Shown here in pieces: positions 46,156 through 52,899 of a stretch of 64,000 nucleotides of DNA (position 1 is the stretch's first letter; each line of letters starts with the position of its first letter). Source of the stretch: Candidatus Latescibacterota bacterium (GTDB lineage: Bacteria > Latescibacterota > UBA2968 > UBA8231); NCBI GenBank assembly GCA_965215195.1, contig CBDCDC010000002.1:3584001-3648000 (forward strand), in the 5' to 3' direction. A model generated the notes under the pieces. The model had not been told where the DNA came from and did not search any database. It saw only the letters and a list, made by a program, of their open reading frames with translations. Made by a program: the position numbers and the translations under genes.

Positions 46156-46210
46156 GGCTAGCAGTTAAGCCTGTTGCCTAATGCACGCACCTTGTACAAA
46201 GGAACCCACC

Positions 46211-47701
46211 ATGACCGACCGCCCCAACATCCTCGTCATAATGACCGACCAGCAGCGCGCCACGGCCAGCCACCTCTACGGCAACACCTTTTGCCAAACC
46301 CCGGCCATGGAACGCCTAGCCGCCGACGGAGTGCTCTTTGAGAACGCAATCACCCCGCACCCGCTCTGCGTGCCGGCGCGCATCTCGTTTTGGACCTCCC
46401 AGTTTCCCCACTCGCACGGCGGCCGCCGCAACCAGACCTTGATGCCGGCCGGTGCCACGCACACTTGGCAGCTTTGGAAAAAGGCCGGCTACGCCACGGG
46501 TCTGATCGGCAAAAACCACTGCTTCGAGCGGGAAGAGGATTTGGCGCTTTTCGACGTGTGGAACGCCTTTACCCACGGCGGGCGCGACGAGGGGCCACAG
46601 ACGCGGGGCATGGACTGGTTCCGGCCGGAAGAAGGTCGCCGCAAGGTCGCGGCCGAGCATCGCCAACTCACCCATCAGAACCCCCGCTTTAGCTACGGCA
46701 CCTCCGAGTTGCCGTTAGAGGACCACTCCACCGGGCTAATCGCCGGGCAGACGACGCGCTTTCTCGAAAAGTACCAAGACCAGCCCTTTGCCCTGTGGGT
46801 TTCCTTTCCCGATCCGCACGAGCCGTGGCTGTGCCCAGCCGAGTACGCGGCCTTGTTCCCGCCCACGGCCATTGACCTGCCTCCTTGGCGCGATGGCGAG
46901 TTCGACGATGAGCGCGCCCCCGAGCGCAATCGGGTGCTCTACCAAATGCTGGGGGTGCGCCGCGATCCGTCCGAAGACCTCTACGGCGTCATGGCCTCGT
47001 ACTTTGGCATGGTGCGCTTTATCGACGACGCGCTCGGCCAAATACTCGACAAGCTCGACGAACTGGGGCTGCGGGAGCAGACGATTGTGGTATTTTGTTC
47101 GGACCACGGCGACTTCATGGGCGAACACGCCATGCAGTGCAAAGGCGGCGTTTTCTACGACAGCCTGACGCGGGTGCCGCTGATCGTCTCTTGGCCCGGA
47201 CAGGTCGCCGCTGGCGTCCGCGACCAGAGCATGGCCAATCTAATTGACGTGGTGCCGACGCTGTTGCACTTGCAGGGGCTGGCGCAGCCGCGCTCAATGC
47301 ACGGAGCACCGCTACCCACCGCGACCGAGGCCGCACCTCGGGAGGCGACCTTTTCCGAATACGGCAGCGGGGGGCCGCTCTTTACCATGGCCGATCTGGA
47401 AAAACTGCCGCAACCTTGGGGCCGCAAGACCCTGATCGACACCTTGCAGTGGCGCGAGGCGGCTGGCCGGTGCAAGATGGTCCGCACCCGTCAGTGGAAG
47501 TACGTCCACGACCCCATGGGCGACCGCGACGAACTCTACGACCTCGTCGCCGATCCCGGCGAGTTGGTCAATGTGATCGACGAGGAGCAACATTGCGACG
47601 CCCTCGCCGCCATGCGCCTGCGGTTAGCCGACTGGAGCATCAACACCGAGGACGCCCGGCCAGTGCCCCTGCCTGACCGCGCCCACTACGAGCTGGCCTG
47701 A
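46211..47701 (+). CDS. Sulfatase (Cys-type)
   Basis: RPNILVIMTDQQR, CVPAR (CxPxR), GKNH, SDHGD. Confidence 0.92.
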   Translation: MTDRPNILVIMTDQQRATASHLYGNTFCQTPAMERLAADGVLFENAITPHPLCVPARISFWTSQFPHSHGGRRNQTLMPAGATHTWQLWKKAGYATGLIGKNHCFEREEDLALFDVWNAFTHGGRDEGPQTRGMDWFRPEEGRRKVAAEHRQLTHQNPRFSYGTSELPLEDHSTGLIAGQTTRFLEKYQDQPFALWVSFPDPHEPWLCPAEYAALFPPTAIDLPPWRDGEFDDERAPERNRVLYQMLGVRRDPSEDLYGVMASYFGMVRFIDDALGQILDKLDELGLREQTIVVFCSDHGDFMGEHAMQCKGGVFYDSLTRVPLIVSWPGQVAAGVRDQSMANLIDVVPTLLHLQGLAQPRSMHGAPLPTATEAAPREATFSEYGSGGPLFTMADLEKLPQPWGRKTLIDTLQWREAAGRCKMVRTRQWKYVHDPMGDRDELYDLVADPGELVNVIDEEQHCDALAAMRLRLADWSINTEDARPVPLPDRAHYELA

Positions 47702-47758
47702 ATTTGACACTAGGGCAACGTTGGCCAATCGTTTGTAGGTCAGCGAAAGGATAAAGTG

Positions 47759-47989
47759 ATGACATCAATTCAAGGATTGCCAACTCCCCAAAGTGTAGAA
47801 ACCGAACGCGAAGACGATGGTTGATGGATTGCTGAAATCGTCGAGATTCCCGGTGCTATGACCTATGGCTTGACCGTTGAGGAGGCCACCGCAAAGGTGC
47901 AAGCACTTGCCCTGCGCGTCTTGGCCGAACGCCTTGAACATGGAGAAATTGGGCCGGAATGTTTCAGGCAGCATGAACAGGTGGCCTAG
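47759..47989 (+). pseudogene. hicB: HicB-like antitoxin with internal stop
   Basis: EREDDG*(TGA 47822-47824)WIAEIVEIPGAMTYGLTVEEA..LAERLEHGE. Confidence 0.75.
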
Positions 47990-48185
47990 CACTCGTGCCA
48001 GAAGGGTTCTGGCGGCTCTGCTGCGTTCGGGATGGAGCGTGAAAAGCCAATCAGGCTCTCACAGGACTTTGGCAAAAGAAGGCTGGCCCGACTAAACTTT
48101 TGCTTTCCATGACTACCAAGAAATTGGTCCTCGAATGTTGGCGCGTCTTGCCAAGCGCACCGGACTTAGACCGGAACATTTGTAG
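47973..48185 (+). pseudogene. hicA: HicA toxin with internal stop
   Basis: MNRWPSTRARRVLAALLRSGW..SGSHRTL..GWPD*(TAA 48093-48095)TFAFHD..EIGPRML..TGL. Confidence 0.8.
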
Positions 48186-48192
48186 CTGACGC

Positions 48193-48222
48193 TTGACACA
48201 ATCGGCGCTCTGCCGGTATCTT
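48193..48222 (+). promoter_or_regulatory. Sigma70-type promoter for the thrS leader
   Basis: TTGACA (48193-48198), 18-nt spacer, TATCTT (48217-48222); leader ATG 7 nt downstream. Confidence 0.6.
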
Positions 48223-48229
48223 ATGCGGC

Positions 48230-48334
48230 ATGATTTCTGCTCTGCTTACAGTCGCGTCCGCATCGTGCCCCAGCCGTTTCCCGTCGGGGCTGACCCCTAC
48301 CACCACTACGACTACGACTATATGCGCCGGATAG
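48230..48334 (+). CDS. Thr-rich leader peptide (34 aa) of the thrS attenuator
   Basis: MISALLTVASASCPSRFPSGLTPTTTTTTTICAG*, seven consecutive Thr codons directly upstream of thrS. Confidence 0.8.
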   Translation: MISALLTVASASCPSRFPSGLTPTTTTTTTICAG

Positions 48335-48365
48335 CGACGGACTAAAGCTCATTTTGCAACCTCTC

Positions 48366-48398
48366 CCCGCTGTCGGCTACGATGACAGCGGGTTTTTT
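48366..48398 (+). terminator. Attenuator terminator upstream of thrS
   Basis: CCCGCTGTC/GACAGCGGG stem plus T6; its 5' arm can pair alternatively with GCCGGATAGCG (48326-48336). Confidence 0.8.
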
Positions 48399-48416
48399 CA
48401 TGCCAAGGAGCACGTC

Positions 48417-50330
48417 ATGCTGATCAAGGTCCCCCAAGGACAGGCCATCGAATACCCCGGCGAGGGTACGCTCAAGGAGATCCTCGCCCAAGAGAACAAG
48501 GCACTTTTGAAGCAATACATTGCCGCCCGCGCCGGCGACGAGCGCATCGACTTTCACACCCGGCTCGGCAGCGAGGCGGAAGTCGAGCTCATTCCCTGGG
48601 ATGCGGACGAAGCGGCTTGGATCTACCGCCACAGCATGTCGCACGTGTTGGCGCAGGCCGTGCTGCGCCTCTTCCCGGACGCACAACTGGCGATCGGCCC
48701 GGCCATTGACGATGGCTTCTACTACGACTTCGACGTGGCCGCGCCTTTTACGCCCTCGGACTTGCAGAAGATCGAGCGCGAGATGAAGCGGGTCGTCAAG
48801 CAAAACCACCGGTTCGAGCGCATTGATGTCGAGCGCCAAGAAGCGGAAGAGATGGTCGCCAACGCTCCCTACAAACAGGAGATCCTCGCCGACTTGGAAG
48901 AAGGCCAGCCCTTGTCCTTTTACAAAGACGGCGAGTTCATCGACTTGTGCCGGGGGCCGCACATGCTCGGCACCGGGCAAATCAGGCACTTCAAGCTCCT
49001 GAGCGTAGCCGGGGCCTATTGGCGCGGCGACGAGAGCCGCAAGATGTTGCAGCGCATCTACGGCACAGCCTTTGCCACCCGCGAGGAGCTCAACCACCAT
49101 CTGGCCATGCTGGAGGAGGCCAAAAAGCGCGACCATCGCACGCTGGGCAAGCAACTGGAGTTGTTCACCTTTGACGACGAAGTGGGGCCGGGTTTGCCGC
49201 TGTGGCTCCCCAAGGGGGCGGTGCTCATCGACGAGCTGGAGGACTTAGCCCGCAAGACCGAGCGCGAGGCCGGCTATCGGCGGGTGCGTACGCCGCACAT
49301 CTGCAAGGAATCCATGTACAAGCGCAGCGGTCACTTGCCCTACTATGCCGCGTCCATGTTCCCGCCCATGGAGTTGGAGGGGGTCAAGTACTACCTCAAG
49401 CCCATGAACTGTCCCCACCACCACAAAATTTTTGCCGCTGCCCGGCACTCGTACCGCGACCTACCTCTGCGCTTGGCCGAATATGGCACGTGCTATCGCT
49501 ACGAGCAGTCGGGCGAGTTGTTCGGCTTGATGCGGGTGCGCTCGTTGCAGATGAACGACGCGCACATCTACTGCACCCTCGACCAGTTCGAGGAGGAATT
49601 CCTCGCCGTCTGCCAGATGTACTTGCGCTATTTTGAGCTGTTCGGCTTGGAGAATTACCTGATGCGCTTGAGCACCCACGCGCCCTCGGGGCTGGGCGCA
49701 AAGTACGTGGATGACCGCGAGAAGTGGCTCCGCACTGAGGACATGGTGCGCGGTGCCATGGCGAGGGGAGGAATCAACTACGAAGAGGTGCCCGACGAAG
49801 CCGCCTTCTACGGCCCCAAGATCGACGTCGAGGTCTGGAGCGCCATCGGGCGGCAGTTTACAATCGCCACCAACCAAGTCGATTTCGCCCAGCCCGGCCG
49901 CTTCGGCTTGACGTACACCAACGCGGCCGGCCAAGAGGAGACCCCCATCTGCATCCACCGTGCGCCGCTGGGTACGCACGAGCGCTTCATCGGCTTCTTG
50001 ATCGAACACTACGCCGGGGCTTTCCCGGTGTGGCTAGCACCCGTGCAAGCGGTCGTTTTGCCCATTGCCGAGCGCCACGCCAAGTACGGGAGCCAGCTCC
50101 ACCAGCAGCTTCTCGCCGCCGGGATCCGCGCCGAACTCGACGCGGCCAGCGAGACCCTCAACAAGCGCATCCGCCAAGCGCAGACGCAGAAGGTGCCCTA
50201 TATGCTAATCGCCGGGGACCGCGAAGTTGAAGAGGGCAAGGTGGCGATCCGGCAGCGATCCGGCGAACAGCTCGACCCGCTCTCTGTAGCCGAGGCCGTC
50301 GCCCTGATCGGTGCTGAGATTAGTAGCTAG
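48417..50330 (+). CDS. thrS: Threonine--tRNA ligase
   Basis: ATG 48417 after AAGGAG; RHSMSH, GP.IDDGFYYDF, DLCRGPH, RDHR, KPMNCP, AAFYGPKID. Confidence 0.97.
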   Translation: MLIKVPQGQAIEYPGEGTLKEILAQENKALLKQYIAARAGDERIDFHTRLGSEAEVELIPWDADEAAWIYRHSMSHVLAQAVLRLFPDAQLAIGPAIDDGFYYDFDVAAPFTPSDLQKIEREMKRVVKQNHRFERIDVERQEAEEMVANAPYKQEILADLEEGQPLSFYKDGEFIDLCRGPHMLGTGQIRHFKLLSVAGAYWRGDESRKMLQRIYGTAFATREELNHHLAMLEEAKKRDHRTLGKQLELFTFDDEVGPGLPLWLPKGAVLIDELEDLARKTEREAGYRRVRTPHICKESMYKRSGHLPYYAASMFPPMELEGVKYYLKPMNCPHHHKIFAAARHSYRDLPLRLAEYGTCYRYEQSGELFGLMRVRSLQMNDAHIYCTLDQFEEEFLAVCQMYLRYFELFGLENYLMRLSTHAPSGLGAKYVDDREKWLRTEDMVRGAMARGGINYEEVPDEAAFYGPKIDVEVWSAIGRQFTIATNQVDFAQPGRFGLTYTNAAGQEETPICIHRAPLGTHERFIGFLIEHYAGAFPVWLAPVQAVVLPIAERHAKYGSQLHQQLLAAGIRAELDAASETLNKRIRQAQTQKVPYMLIAGDREVEEGKVAIRQRSGEQLDPLSVAEAVALIGAEISS

Positions 50331-50336
50331 TGCGCT

Positions 50337-51038
50337 ATGTTCCGCCGCACCCGCTACATCGCCGGAATCTTCTGGCAATTCCGCTACTATCTCCTTTGCA
50401 CTGGGCTGGCGCTGGCCTTTTGGGACACCGCCCTGATCAAGCCGTTCCGCATCTTTGTGGTGCTGGTGCACGAGGTCAATCACGCAGCCGCAGCCCTGCT
50501 CACCGGCGGCGAGGTCCTCGAAATCCGCACCCATTGGAACGAGTCCGGGCACACCCTGACCAAGGGGGGCTTCTTCCCGCTGATTAGTGCGGCCGGCTAC
50601 GTAGGGTCGGCGCTGTGGGGGGCGTTGCTGATGTACACCGCGCTTTATCCGCAGGCGCAGCGGTTGGTGTTGCTGTGCATTGGCGCGACCTGCGCGGGGA
50701 TGACCCTGATCTACACGCCGCTAGAGGCGGGGGGGATTGACTTCGCATTGGGGATCGGCGGCGGGCTGATCTTGTGCGTCATGGCCTGCAAGTCGCGGCG
50801 GATGGCGAGCATCGGTGCGGTGTGGATGGGGATAATGCTGTGCCTGTACAGTCTCTACGACTTCCGCACGGACCTGTGGTACTATCCAGAGCGGACGGAC
50901 GCCGGGATATTGTCGGCCTATTGGGGGCTGGATCCGTTGCAGGTGCCCTATCTGGCGTATCTGATTGCCTTCAGTTGGGTGCTGGTGTCGCTGGTGTGCA
51001 TGTATCGGGCGATGCGCGCCGTGGTTGTCAAGCGATGA
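50337..51038 (+). CDS. M50B family membrane metallopeptidase
   Basis: VHEVNH (HExxH), SAAGY.G, TDA motif; multiple TM segments. Confidence 0.8.
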   Translation: MFRRTRYIAGIFWQFRYYLLCTGLALAFWDTALIKPFRIFVVLVHEVNHAAAALLTGGEVLEIRTHWNESGHTLTKGGFFPLISAAGYVGSALWGALLMYTALYPQAQRLVLLCIGATCAGMTLIYTPLEAGGIDFALGIGGGLILCVMACKSRRMASIGAVWMGIMLCLYSLYDFRTDLWYYPERTDAGILSAYWGLDPLQVPYLAYLIAFSWVLVSLVCMYRAMRAVVVKR

Positions 51039-51129
51039 CAATACCACCCTGCTGGCGGCGGATTTCTTATTGCGAACAGCTTGCAATTGAGTGCAACGGC
51101 CCGATATCGACAGAGAGGAATGTAAAATC

Positions 51130-52899
51130 ATGCGAATGAGTCGGCTTTTCAGTCAGACCTTGCGCGACGTTACCGCCGACGCGGAGGTCGCTAGTCATCA
51201 ACTTTTGCTACGAGCGGGCTTTATCCGCCCGTTGGCCAGCGGCATCTTCAGCTATTTGCCCCTCGCACAGCGGGCGATGCGCAAGATTGAGGACATTATC
51301 CGCCGCGAGATGGACGCCATCGGCGGGCAGGAGATCACCATGCCAGTGGTGCATCCGGCCGAGCTCTGGCAGCGGAGCGGGCGTTGGTACGCGGTCGGCG
51401 CGGAGATGGGTCGCTTTAAGGACAAAAACGACCGCGACATGGTGCTGGCCATGACCCACGAAGAAGTCGTAGCCGACTTGGTCAGCCGCGAGATCAAGTC
51501 CTACAGGCAACTGCCCCAGTTAGTCTATCAGATCCAGACCAAGTGGCGCGACGATCCCCGCCCCCGCTCGGGCCTCATCCGGGTCCGCGAGTTCACCATG
51601 AAGGACTCCTACAGCCTCGACGCCGACTGGGAGGGCCTCGACAGGCAGTACCGCGCCCATTACCAGCGCTATTTCAACATCTTCCATTGCTGCGGCCTCG
51701 ACGTGCTCGCGGTGCGCTCGGACACCGGGATGATGGGCGGCGAACTGGCCCACGAATACATGTACCTGACGCCGATCGGCGAAGACACCCTGCTCTTGTG
51801 CGACGGCTGCGGGTACGCGGCCAATCGCCAGATCGCCACCTTTGCCAAACAGGCCAATCCCGCCGAAGCGCCCGCCGCACCCGAGAAGATCGCCACGCCC
51901 AATACCAAGACCATTGAGGAGCTGACCGCGCTGCTCGACATCCCCGCGCACAAGACCGCTAAGGCGCTCTTTGCGATGGCCACGGTCGGCGACGGTCCAG
52001 ACAAGGAGGATGCGTTTGTGCTGGCGGTCGTGCGCGGCGACATGGAAGTCAACGAGACCAAGCTGGCCAACGCGGTCGGCGCGCTCGAGATGTGGCCGGC
52101 GCGGGACGAGGAAATACGCGCCATCGGCGCGGAGCCAGGCTATGGATCGCCCATTGGCGTCGAGGGAGCGCTGGTCGTCGTCGATGACGCAGTGGCGTCT
52201 TCGCCCAATTTGGTGGCCGGTGCCAACGAGCCGGGCTACCACCTCGCCAATGTAAACCACGGCCGCGACTACAAGGCCGACGTGGTCGCCGATATCGCCG
52301 CCGCCCGGCAGGGCGATGGCTGCTCTAACTGCGGCGCAGTGCTGCGCGAATCGCGCGGGGTGGAAGTGGGCAACATCTTCCAGCTAGGCACCAAGTTCAC
52401 CGAGGCTCTGGGCGGTGATTTCCTCGACGCCGAGGGCCGGGCGCAGCCGGTCGTCATGGGGTCTTACGGGATCGGCGTGGGGCGGTTGCTGGCCTGTATC
52501 GCCGAGGAGCACCGCGACGAAAACGGCTTGATGTGGCCCATTGCCGTTGCGCCCTATCAGGTACACATCGTCCTCCTCGCCAAAGGCGCAGGCGCAGCGC
52601 AAGACGCGGCCGAGCAGCTCTACGCCGATCTGGCGGAGCGCGGTATTGAAGTTCTCCTCGACGACCGCCGAGAAAGCGCCGGGGTCAAGTTCAACGACGC
52701 CGACTTGATTGGCCTACCGGTGCGGGTGACGGTAGGGGATCGCGGTTTGCAGCGGGGAATTGTCGAGGTCAAGTTGCGGCGCGAAAAAGATCGACGAGAA
52801 ACGCCGGTGGATCAGGTGGTAGAGTACGTGGTAGAACAGGTGGAGAAGTTGCAACGCGAGTTGGACGAGCGGGTGGTAGAAGTGGAGTACCAAGAGTAG
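51130..52899 (+). CDS. proS: Proline--tRNA ligase (with INS editing domain)
   Basis: MRMSRLFSQTLR, THEE, QIQTKWRD, REFTMKDSYS, GANE, EVGNIFQLG, MGSYGIGVGR. Confidence 0.97.
   Translation: MRMSRLFSQTLRDVTADAEVASHQLLLRAGFIRPLASGIFSYLPLAQRAMRKIEDIIRREMDAIGGQEITMPVVHPAELWQRSGRWYAVGAEMGRFKDKNDRDMVLAMTHEEVVADLVSREIKSYRQLPQLVYQIQTKWRDDPRPRSGLIRVREFTMKDSYSLDADWEGLDRQYRAHYQRYFNIFHCCGLDVLAVRSDTGMMGGELAHEYMYLTPIGEDTLLLCDGCGYAANRQIATFAKQANPAEAPAAPEKIATPNTKTIEELTALLDIPAHKTAKALFAMATVGDGPDKEDAFVLAVVRGDMEVNETKLANAVGALEMWPARDEEIRAIGAEPGYGSPIGVEGALVVVDDAVASSPNLVAGANEPGYHLANVNHGRDYKADVVADIAAARQGDGCSNCGAVLRESRGVEVGNIFQLGTKFTEALGGDFLDAEGRAQPVVMGSYGIGVGRLLACIAEEHRDENGLMWPIAVAPYQVHIVLLAKGAGAAQDAAEQLYADLAERGIEVLLDDRRESAGVKFNDADLIGLPVRVTVGDRGLQRGIVEVKLRREKDRRETPVDQVVEYVVEQVEKLQRELDERVVEVEYQE
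52875..52890 (+). repeat. 16-bp direct repeat, left copy (proS 3' end)
   Basis: GGTAGAAGTGGAGTAC, identical to 58332-58347. Confidence 0.75.

Follow-up and report, generated by a model that had tools for sequence, protein, structure and literature searches.

The threonine–tRNA ligase gene (thrS) of a Candidatus Latescibacterota bacterium is preceded by a short leader whose layout suggests control by transcription attenuation, and we analysed this leader computationally within a 64,000-nucleotide (nt) stretch of the genome (NCBI GenBank assembly GCA_965215195.1, contig CBDCDC010000002.1, positions 3,584,001 to 3,648,000 of the forward strand; G+C content, 58%), hereafter the window, in whose coordinates all positions are given. 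The gene itself (48417..50330, plus strand) encodes a protein of 637 amino acids that matches TIGR00418 with 684.6 bits (cut-off, 383.65), and a Shine–Dalgarno (SD) sequence, AAGGAG (48405..48410, plus strand), stands 6 nt 5′ of its ATG, without variation between the window and its four closest relatives. Further upstream, also on the plus strand, lie a promoter-like site (48193..48222), a short upstream open reading frame (uORF; 48230..48334) and a terminator hairpin with its U tract. The promoter-like site, whose promoter function is presumed, consists of a −35 hexamer TTGACA (48193–48198), an 18-nt spacer and a −10 hexamer TATCTT (48217–48222); it matches consensus at 10 of 12 positions and was the better of two such sites between 47000 and 51500, where shuffled sequences gave a mean of 1.1 (scan of the window only). 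The uORF begins with an ATG 7 nt after the −10 hexamer, has no SD sequence, and comprises 34 codons encoding MISALLTVASASCPSRFPSGLTPTTTTTTTICAG followed by a UAG stop (48332–48334). The initial annotation had listed the promoter, this threonine-rich frame of 34 codons, the terminator with its six U residues, and the SD sequence and ATG of thrS, and each of these is present in the sequence where it had been placed. When the whole window was searched for the pattern TTGNNN-N16–19-TANNNT-N6–8-start, a short open reading frame (ORF) and a terminator, six hits were obtained, of which four had an ORF of at most 70 amino acids and one had a terminator; this single locus is the thrS leader, and the same pattern scan returned no other candidate for a leaderless uORF plus terminator in the window.

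The most conspicuous part of the leader ORF is its threonine content. Its putative regulatory codons (48293..48319, plus strand) are Thr22 (48293–48295), Pro23 and then seven consecutive Thr codons (ACC ACC ACT ACG ACT ACG ACT; 48299–48319), giving eight Thr in codons 22–30. This is the only Thr run of at least five residues in any of the six frames of the 64 kb, and, together with its own antisense Val run, it is the longest of the 14 single-residue runs of at least five residues found there. Codon choice within the run is also unusual: among 390 Thr codons counted across 11 of the window's long ORFs, just 27 (7%) are ACT, whereas it supplies three of the eight in the leader, and the use of rare codons has been described as a hallmark of leader peptides (PMC2836559).

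Downstream of the Thr codons, the RNA can adopt mutually exclusive structures of similar strength (Antiterminator, −18.4 kcal/mol; terminator hairpin, −17.9 to −18.6 kcal/mol). The terminator has arms at 48366–48375 and 48383–48392 (10 pairs, 7 of them G–C), a 7-nt loop and a T6 tract at 48393–48398, and its U tract ends 18 nt before the thrS ATG; with just 18 nt in between, transcription of thrS has to cross it. Numbering the interacting strands in the classical manner, its 5′ arm belongs to segment 3 (48364..48377), which pairing and folding analysis indicates to be common to terminator and antiterminator, and its 3′ arm and U tract form segment 4 (48383..48398; terminator scan). The antiterminator strand, GCCGGATAGCG (48326–48336), spans the leader stop codon and pairs with 48368–48377 over 10 base pairs (bp), with one bulged G and one G–U pair, as had been noticed at the outset. 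In its extended form the antiterminator pairs 48326–48329 and 48331–48336 with 48368–48377, and 48339–48341 with 48364–48366. These strands lie in segment 2 (48321..48341), which holds the leader stop and forms the strongest duplex with the terminator arm that the leader offers (−15.7 kcal/mol). Segment 2 has a second potential partner: the RNAalifold consensus of five sequences comprises three helices, namely the terminator, a helix of 14 pairs (helix 1:2) between segment 1 (48251..48264) and 48321–48338 in segment 2, and an inner hairpin of nine pairs (48267..48290; 93% of cells paired) directly 5′ of the Thr run. All of these segments are on the plus strand. The same consensus also pairs the U-rich stretch 48340–48358 with the SD region of thrS (48401–48416), enclosing the terminator hairpin; the changes seen in this pairing are one-sided and none is compensatory, and it could, as modelled, add a layer of translational control.

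To place these features in an evolutionary context, we compared the leader with those of relatives, obtained by a genome scan with ThrS as the query and taken as the best 80 of 596 relatives. In four loci (L001–L004), ThrS is 94–96% identical to that of the window; three of these are labelled as Candidatus Latescibacterota metagenome-assembled genomes (MAGs) and one as Gemmatimonadetes. The same element was found in all four, with the uORF at an equal distance from the −10 hexamer, a Thr run, a stop codon within the antiterminator strand, and the terminator. The leader stop sits in a GCC(G/A)GAUAGCG segment, 82 nt from the thrS ATG, in each of the five sequences. The Thr run varies in length from about 7 to 11 codons: the block reads TPTTTTTTT in the window (8 of 9 residues Thr), TPTTATTTTT in L001 (8 of 10), TATTTTTTTTTT in L002 (11 of 12), TATTTTTTTTT in L003 (10 of 11) and TASTTTMTTTT in L004 (8 of 11).

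As a yardstick for selection, we used the third codon positions of thrS, which are near-neutral and 80–84% identical among the five sequences. Nucleotide identity exceeded this background in the terminator stems (100%; 20 of 20 positions in all 10 pairwise comparisons), from the U tract to the thrS ATG (96%), in segment 2 plus linker (92%) and in the inner hairpin (92%), and fell below it in the terminator loop (69%) and in the spacer that separates the −10 hexamer from the ATG (58%). The Thr block (80%) evolves at a near-neutral nucleotide rate, yet its threonines are retained through exchanges among ACC, ACT and ACG and through 3-nt insertions and deletions, pointing to selection on the meaning of the codons rather than on RNA structure or on the peptide. 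Covariation provides a further line of evidence: helix 1:2 contains two compensatory C–G to U–A changes, one in L004 (columns 82 and 161) and one in the window (columns 86 and 154), and 95.8% of cells are paired across the whole structure, as opposed to 32–49% when the partner strand is slid by one to three columns. With five close relatives, we regard the covariation of helix 1:2 as supportive, not as conclusive.

We then modelled how a translating ribosome would alter the choice between these structures. Masked folding in which pairs were allowed across the ribosome gave physically doubtful structures; folding was therefore confined to sequence lying 3′ of the ribosome, and the ribosome's edge was taken as 13 nt beyond the A-site codon's first base. 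When Thr22, or any codon of the Thr block but the last two or three, occupied the A site, 9 of the 10 nt of the terminator 5′ arm were already paired before the 3′ arm existed, at −16 to −20 kcal/mol in all five sequences; when one of those last two or three did so, the energy dropped to −11 to −14 kcal/mol. Once the leader stop was in the A site, the competing structure that was left amounted to just −1.3 to −2.9 kcal/mol in all five sequences, so the terminator can form with a ribosome at that position. In the naked full-length RNA, the minimum free energy (MFE) fold combined helix 1:2 with the terminator (3:4), corresponding to the terminated state. Thus modelled, the leader reproduces the classical switch between two alternative structures that the initial annotation had proposed to look for by folding; its search for Thr-run uORFs in relatives was likewise borne out, in four of four loci at 94–96% ThrS identity, and its attenuation logic gains further from the covariation of helix 1:2, a helix that it had not described.

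Together, these parts stand in the classical order and spacing (uORF, Thr run, segments 2 to 4, thrS), and we consider it likely that the element is a classical ribosome-mediated transcription attenuator, adjusting thrS expression to how much charged transfer RNA for threonine (tRNA-Thr) is available, probably from a leaderless uORF; that it is an attenuator at all is slightly more likely still. In the proposed mechanism, transcription would most likely begin with the A of the 48230 ATG or no more than one base away from it, and the 34-codon leader would be translated as a leaderless messenger RNA as it emerges. When threonyl-tRNA is plentiful, the ribosome would reach the UAG at 48332 and cover segment 2, the terminator (48366–48392 plus U6) would form, and most transcripts would stop 18 nt before the thrS ATG. 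When it is scarce, through too little threonine or too little threonyl-tRNA synthetase (ThrRS), the ribosome would stall in the Thr codons at 48293–48319, leaving segment 2 free to capture the terminator 5′ arm while the 3′ arm is still to be transcribed, and allowing readthrough into thrS. Were the leader not translated, segment 1 (48251–48264) would sequester segment 2, and the terminator would again be expected to form. This explanation is supported, computationally, by conservation, covariation and energetics; the transcription start site (TSS), the stalling, the order of folding and a physiological response to threonine are inferred.

Several results weigh against this interpretation. When the full-length RNA was folded with a ribosome on the Thr run, the fold containing the terminator was always the MFE structure (−23.2 versus −18.4 kcal/mol); with the terminator fold the minimum once the 3′ arm is present, antitermination has to be a kinetic effect, in keeping with the assumption of the classical model. 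About 35 nt separate segment 1 from the Thr run downstream of it, which puts the segment beyond the reach of a stalled ribosome's footprint, a position atypical of the textbook layout, and in unconstrained folding helix 1:2 re-forms around the masked ribosome. The observed covariation was reached by 19 of 500 column shuffles, a test of little power with two compensatory pairs and five closely related sequences. The antiterminator strands are unvarying except for a G to A change at the bulged position in L004, and the invariant antiterminator and terminator stems neither support nor refute those pairings. Mononucleotide shuffles of 48312–48363 yielded an equally full and equally low-energy pairing of the terminator arm in 24 of 2,000 cases, and the leader as a whole is not unusually stable relative to shuffles (z = −1.23), so its overall stability is no evidence. 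The −35 hexamer of L001–L004 is just TTGCAC, a poor match to consensus, and the promoter scan covered the window alone. Finally, the element is missing from the next relatives in ThrS (L005 and L006, 74%; L007, 70%; L008, 65%), and outside the clade a Thr-rich uORF was found in only one of the 71 loci examined.

The position of segment 1 bears on how antitermination might proceed. The stalled ribosome may sterically block helix 1:2, segment 1 may be covered by a second ribosome queued behind the first, or a pause of RNA polymerase at the inner hairpin may synchronise the two machines. The inner hairpin (48267–48290) is a possible RNA polymerase pause hairpin.

Whether the uORF is leaderless can be judged from the geometry of its start. 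The ATG lies exactly 7 nt after a −10 hexamer of the form TAT(C/T)TT in all five sequences, though the spacer is the least conserved part of the element, and no SD-like purine run was found 5′ of the leader ATG in any of the five. L004 has lost 12 nt, and with them the first four codons, which brings the next ATG to the same 7-nt distance. For comparison, the mean distance from −10 to TSS in Streptomyces lividans is given as 6.3 nt, with 88.7% of spacers measuring 5–7 nt (PMC8079986). Given the 7-nt distance and the lack of an SD sequence, the ATG at 48230 is probably the 5′ end of the transcript, and with moderate confidence we favour a leaderless uORF, as first suggested in the initial annotation and now strengthened by the spacing in relatives. 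An alternative is the same attenuator with a uORF that is not leaderless, carried on a longer transcript (by readthrough from the upstream gene or from a promoter further 5′) and started by SD-independent internal initiation. The TSS is placed from geometry; in L001–L004, a sulfatase gene ends about 10 nt 5′ of the −35 with no terminator between; the uORF frame is open upstream to a TTG in L003 and L004; and the poor −35 of the relatives would suit this alternative as well. Set against these points are the absence of an SD-like purine run, the conservation of the −10 hexamer at its 7-nt distance (the hexamer and the CTGCCGG preceding it show no variation across the window and L001–L004) despite a spacer only 58% identical, the spacing restored after the L004 deletion, and the element itself, unchanged in the window in spite of an unrelated HicA-like insert upstream. 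We judge this alternative to be unlikely and retain the leaderless uORF.

Three further explanations would do away with attenuation by a translating ribosome. In the first, the hairpin is a terminator or insulator of the upstream gene, thrS has its own promoter inside or after the hairpin, and the Thr uORF is non-regulatory. The window does contain a promoter-like pair, TTGCAA (48353–48358) and TACGAT (48378–48383), but its spacer is 19 nt, the site was not picked up by the promoter scan, and the −10-like hexamer falls in the variable terminator loop, reading CGTGAT, TCCAAT, TACAAT and TCCAAT in L001–L004, respectively. Only 18 nt separate the U tract from the ATG. Moreover, this explanation does not account for the persistence, despite synonymous substitutions, of a run of 7–11 Thr codons immediately ahead of the ThrRS gene, or for conservation of segment 2 above the synonymous background, and we regard it as highly improbable.

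In the second, a trans-acting factor would bind the leader RNA, either ThrRS, recognising a mimic of the tRNA anticodon arm as it does for thrS of E. coli, or uncharged tRNA-Thr, after the manner of a T-box. In other phyla, each of these mechanisms is established for thrS. A T-box upstream of a thrS homologue, for example, is listed in Table 1 of PMC2836559. At the locus studied here, however, cmscan of 47700–48900 against all of Rfam, T-box included, at E-values up to 10 returned a single match, to Prion_pknot on the opposite (minus) strand, which is attributed to chance (20.3 bits; gathering threshold, 39); the terminator loop is the only possible anticodon-loop mimic, and four of its seven positions vary; and neither mechanism explains a translatable run of Thr codons, so that a trans-acting factor is barely credible here. 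The third explanation, that the product of the uORF is a small peptide with a function of its own (a precursor rich in Thr and Cys, say) whose place before thrS is incidental, could draw on the N- and C-terminal peptide parts conserved in the five sequences, but those parts (...TVASA..., ...SGFPSGP... and ...CAG at the stop) coincide with segment 1, the inner hairpin and segment 2, the codons between the helices vary freely (SCP, QRL, PCL, HSL and QHR), the length of the Thr run ranges from 7 to 10, and neither a Pfam match to the peptide nor modification genes near the locus were found, so it can practically be set aside.

The attenuator favoured here resembles several known systems in its logic. 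In E. coli, pheM encodes a leader peptide in which the cognate amino acid abounds, and which governs a terminator before the synthetase operon pheST and senses charged tRNA; the logic is the same as that proposed for thrS, whereas pheM is SD-led, belongs to the Gammaproteobacteria, concerns another amino acid and has no sequence relation to the element described here. The thrL leader of enterobacterial thrABC (Thr_leader in Rfam) likewise has a run of Thr codons and alternative antiterminator and terminator hairpins, but it regulates biosynthesis genes, contains Ile codons too and is SD-led, and the element described here has no Rfam match. Through the T-box of thrS in Firmicutes and the ThrRS operator of thrS in E. 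coli, thrS expression rises when charging of tRNA-Thr falls or ThrRS is short; the physiological logic is again the same, with uncharged tRNA or ThrRS as the sensor in those systems and, as proposed, the translating ribosome in this one. The element thus adds a data point on how control of thrS has been reinvented, by a protein operator in E. coli, by the T-box in Firmicutes and, presumably, by a leader peptide here.

The closest published parallels are leaderless. TSS mapping in Deinococcus deserti by De Groot et al. (2014) led to the annotation of 14 leaderless leader peptides before synthetase and biosynthesis genes (PMC4007540). The one before thrS has 33 codons, a TSS at its AUG 186 nt before thrS, and 20,537 reads as compared with 755 on thrS itself (Table S2 of that report), and its authors proposed it as a transcription attenuator (PMC4007540). 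The dimensions are close, with 186 nt from uORF start to thrS in D. deserti and 187 nt in the window, and 33 and 34 codons, respectively; the peptide given for D. deserti (...VTRTLRA) has two Thr and no run, in contrast to the unambiguous Thr signal here, and the comparison, made by eye for the peptides, spans different phyla and sets a mapped TSS against an inferred start (PMC4007540). In S. lividans TK24, a leaderless thrL of 18 codons, two of them Thr, precedes thrS; its entry in Table 4 of the report shows a single hairpin that lacks a U tract, and termination there is described by the authors as unclear (PMC8079986). That report also gives leaderless leader peptides before leuS, trpS and alaS (PMC8079986). 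Like the S. lividans example, the element described here has a probably leaderless uORF before thrS that is read as a Thr-dependent attenuator; unlike it, it has a canonical intrinsic terminator and a run of 7–10 Thr (PMC8079986). The precedents named in the initial annotation stand as far as they go; they were incomplete, and novelty was overstated, since published work had already described leaderless leader peptides for thrS as well as for further synthetase genes (PMC4007540, PMC8079986). In the literature searched, we found no Thr-run leader before thrS and none for Latescibacterota; a survey of attenuation in amino-acid and aminoacyl-tRNA operons by Lopatovskaya et al. (2010; Mol Biol 44:128, cited in PMC4833913) may hold earlier predictions. 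The mechanism is therefore not new; what is notable is the clear Thr signal, the candidate-phylum host and a convergent case in the Verrucomicrobiota.

That case emerged from the distribution of the element beyond the clade. The thrS ORF was located in 78 of the 80 loci (all but L048 and L061), 75 of which have at least 150 nt of upstream sequence. An nhmmer profile of the leader matched only its four training loci, L001–L004, among the 80 (next E-value, 0.22), and among the best 80 of 596 relatives the element is clade-specific. A small ORF with at least four Thr in seven codons was present in five of the 75 loci (L001–L004 and L024), as compared with 12 for Leu, 5 for Ile and 5 for Ser by the same criterion, so there is no general Thr enrichment outside the clade; runs of at least four ACN codons occurred in just the same five loci. 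Terminator-like hairpins were found within 300 nt upstream of thrS in 12 of 72 loci, and directly before thrS only in L001–L005; L024, with too little sequence upstream, was not part of this count.

L024 is a Verrucomicrobiota MAG with a ThrS 61% identical to that of the window. Its element (L024:60–225) has an unrelated uORF of 15 codons, MVMAEFTMTTTTGWR (containing TMTTTT), whose last codons and stop (133–140) lie in an antiterminator strand, 133–138 pairing with 165–170; a terminator (166–190) followed by U8 stands 24 nt before thrS. The nascent antiterminator fold has an energy of −22.8 kcal/mol (z = −3.97), and by eye a TTGCTT-N17-TAGGGT motif ends 8 nt 5′ of the uORF ATG. On these features, L024 is apparently an independent invention of the same device, convergent with the Latescibacterota element.

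A different arrangement was observed at L005 (L005:2640–3003), where a similar promoter core, CTGCCGGTA, is followed by a terminator that also resembles the one in the window and keeps its distance of 24 nt to the start codon of thrS; the two are separated by a GC-rich leader of about 300 nt that has no Thr-run uORF and no Rfam match. The L005 leader may, judging from its sequence, carry a different sensor on the same expression platform. A scan of L005–L008 and L024 at Rfam gathering thresholds found only a tRNA gene, in L008.

A bolder synthesis of these results can be framed: that this is the first thrS attenuator with an unmistakable Thr run, which evolved independently on two or more occasions (once in Latescibacterota, once in a Verrucomicrobiota MAG), that leaderless attenuation of synthetase genes is a widespread and largely unannotated counterpart of the T-box outside Firmicutes, and that, since segment 1 falls beyond the stalled ribosome's footprint (about 35 nt 5′ of the stall site), full antitermination may require a second ribosome waiting behind the first, of a kind that a 5′-terminal AUG can readily load, so that the element would sense ribosome queuing and not a single stalled ribosome. 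Taken as a whole, we hold this to be doubtful. The narrower case would be a textbook-quality, sequence-verifiable example of amino-acid-sensing attenuation of a synthetase gene in a candidate phylum without cultured members, and the element, at about 170 nt, is compact enough to be a possible seed for annotating uORFs that gene callers miss.

Six nucleotides downstream of thrS is a gene for a Peptidase_M50B-like membrane protein (50337–51038), followed by proS (ATG at 51131, with its own SD sequence), which has no leader ORF upstream; two class II synthetase genes thus lie within 3 kb (thrS and proS, the latter in the region 50337–52899 after thrS), and the attenuator is at thrS only. Upstream are a type III restriction endonuclease gene, the sulfatase gene (46181–47701) and a HicA-family ORF (47877–48185, plus strand). 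L001–L004 lack the stretch, about 480 bp long, that contains the HicA-like ORF and separates the sulfatase gene from the thrS promoter; in these loci the sulfatase gene is co-directional with thrS and ends about 10 nt before the −35. The stretch is therefore a window-specific insertion, and the regulatory element starts at the promoter. The HicA_toxin-family ORF itself matches Pfam PF07927 with 36.2 bits and is broken by a single in-frame TAA at 48093–48095.

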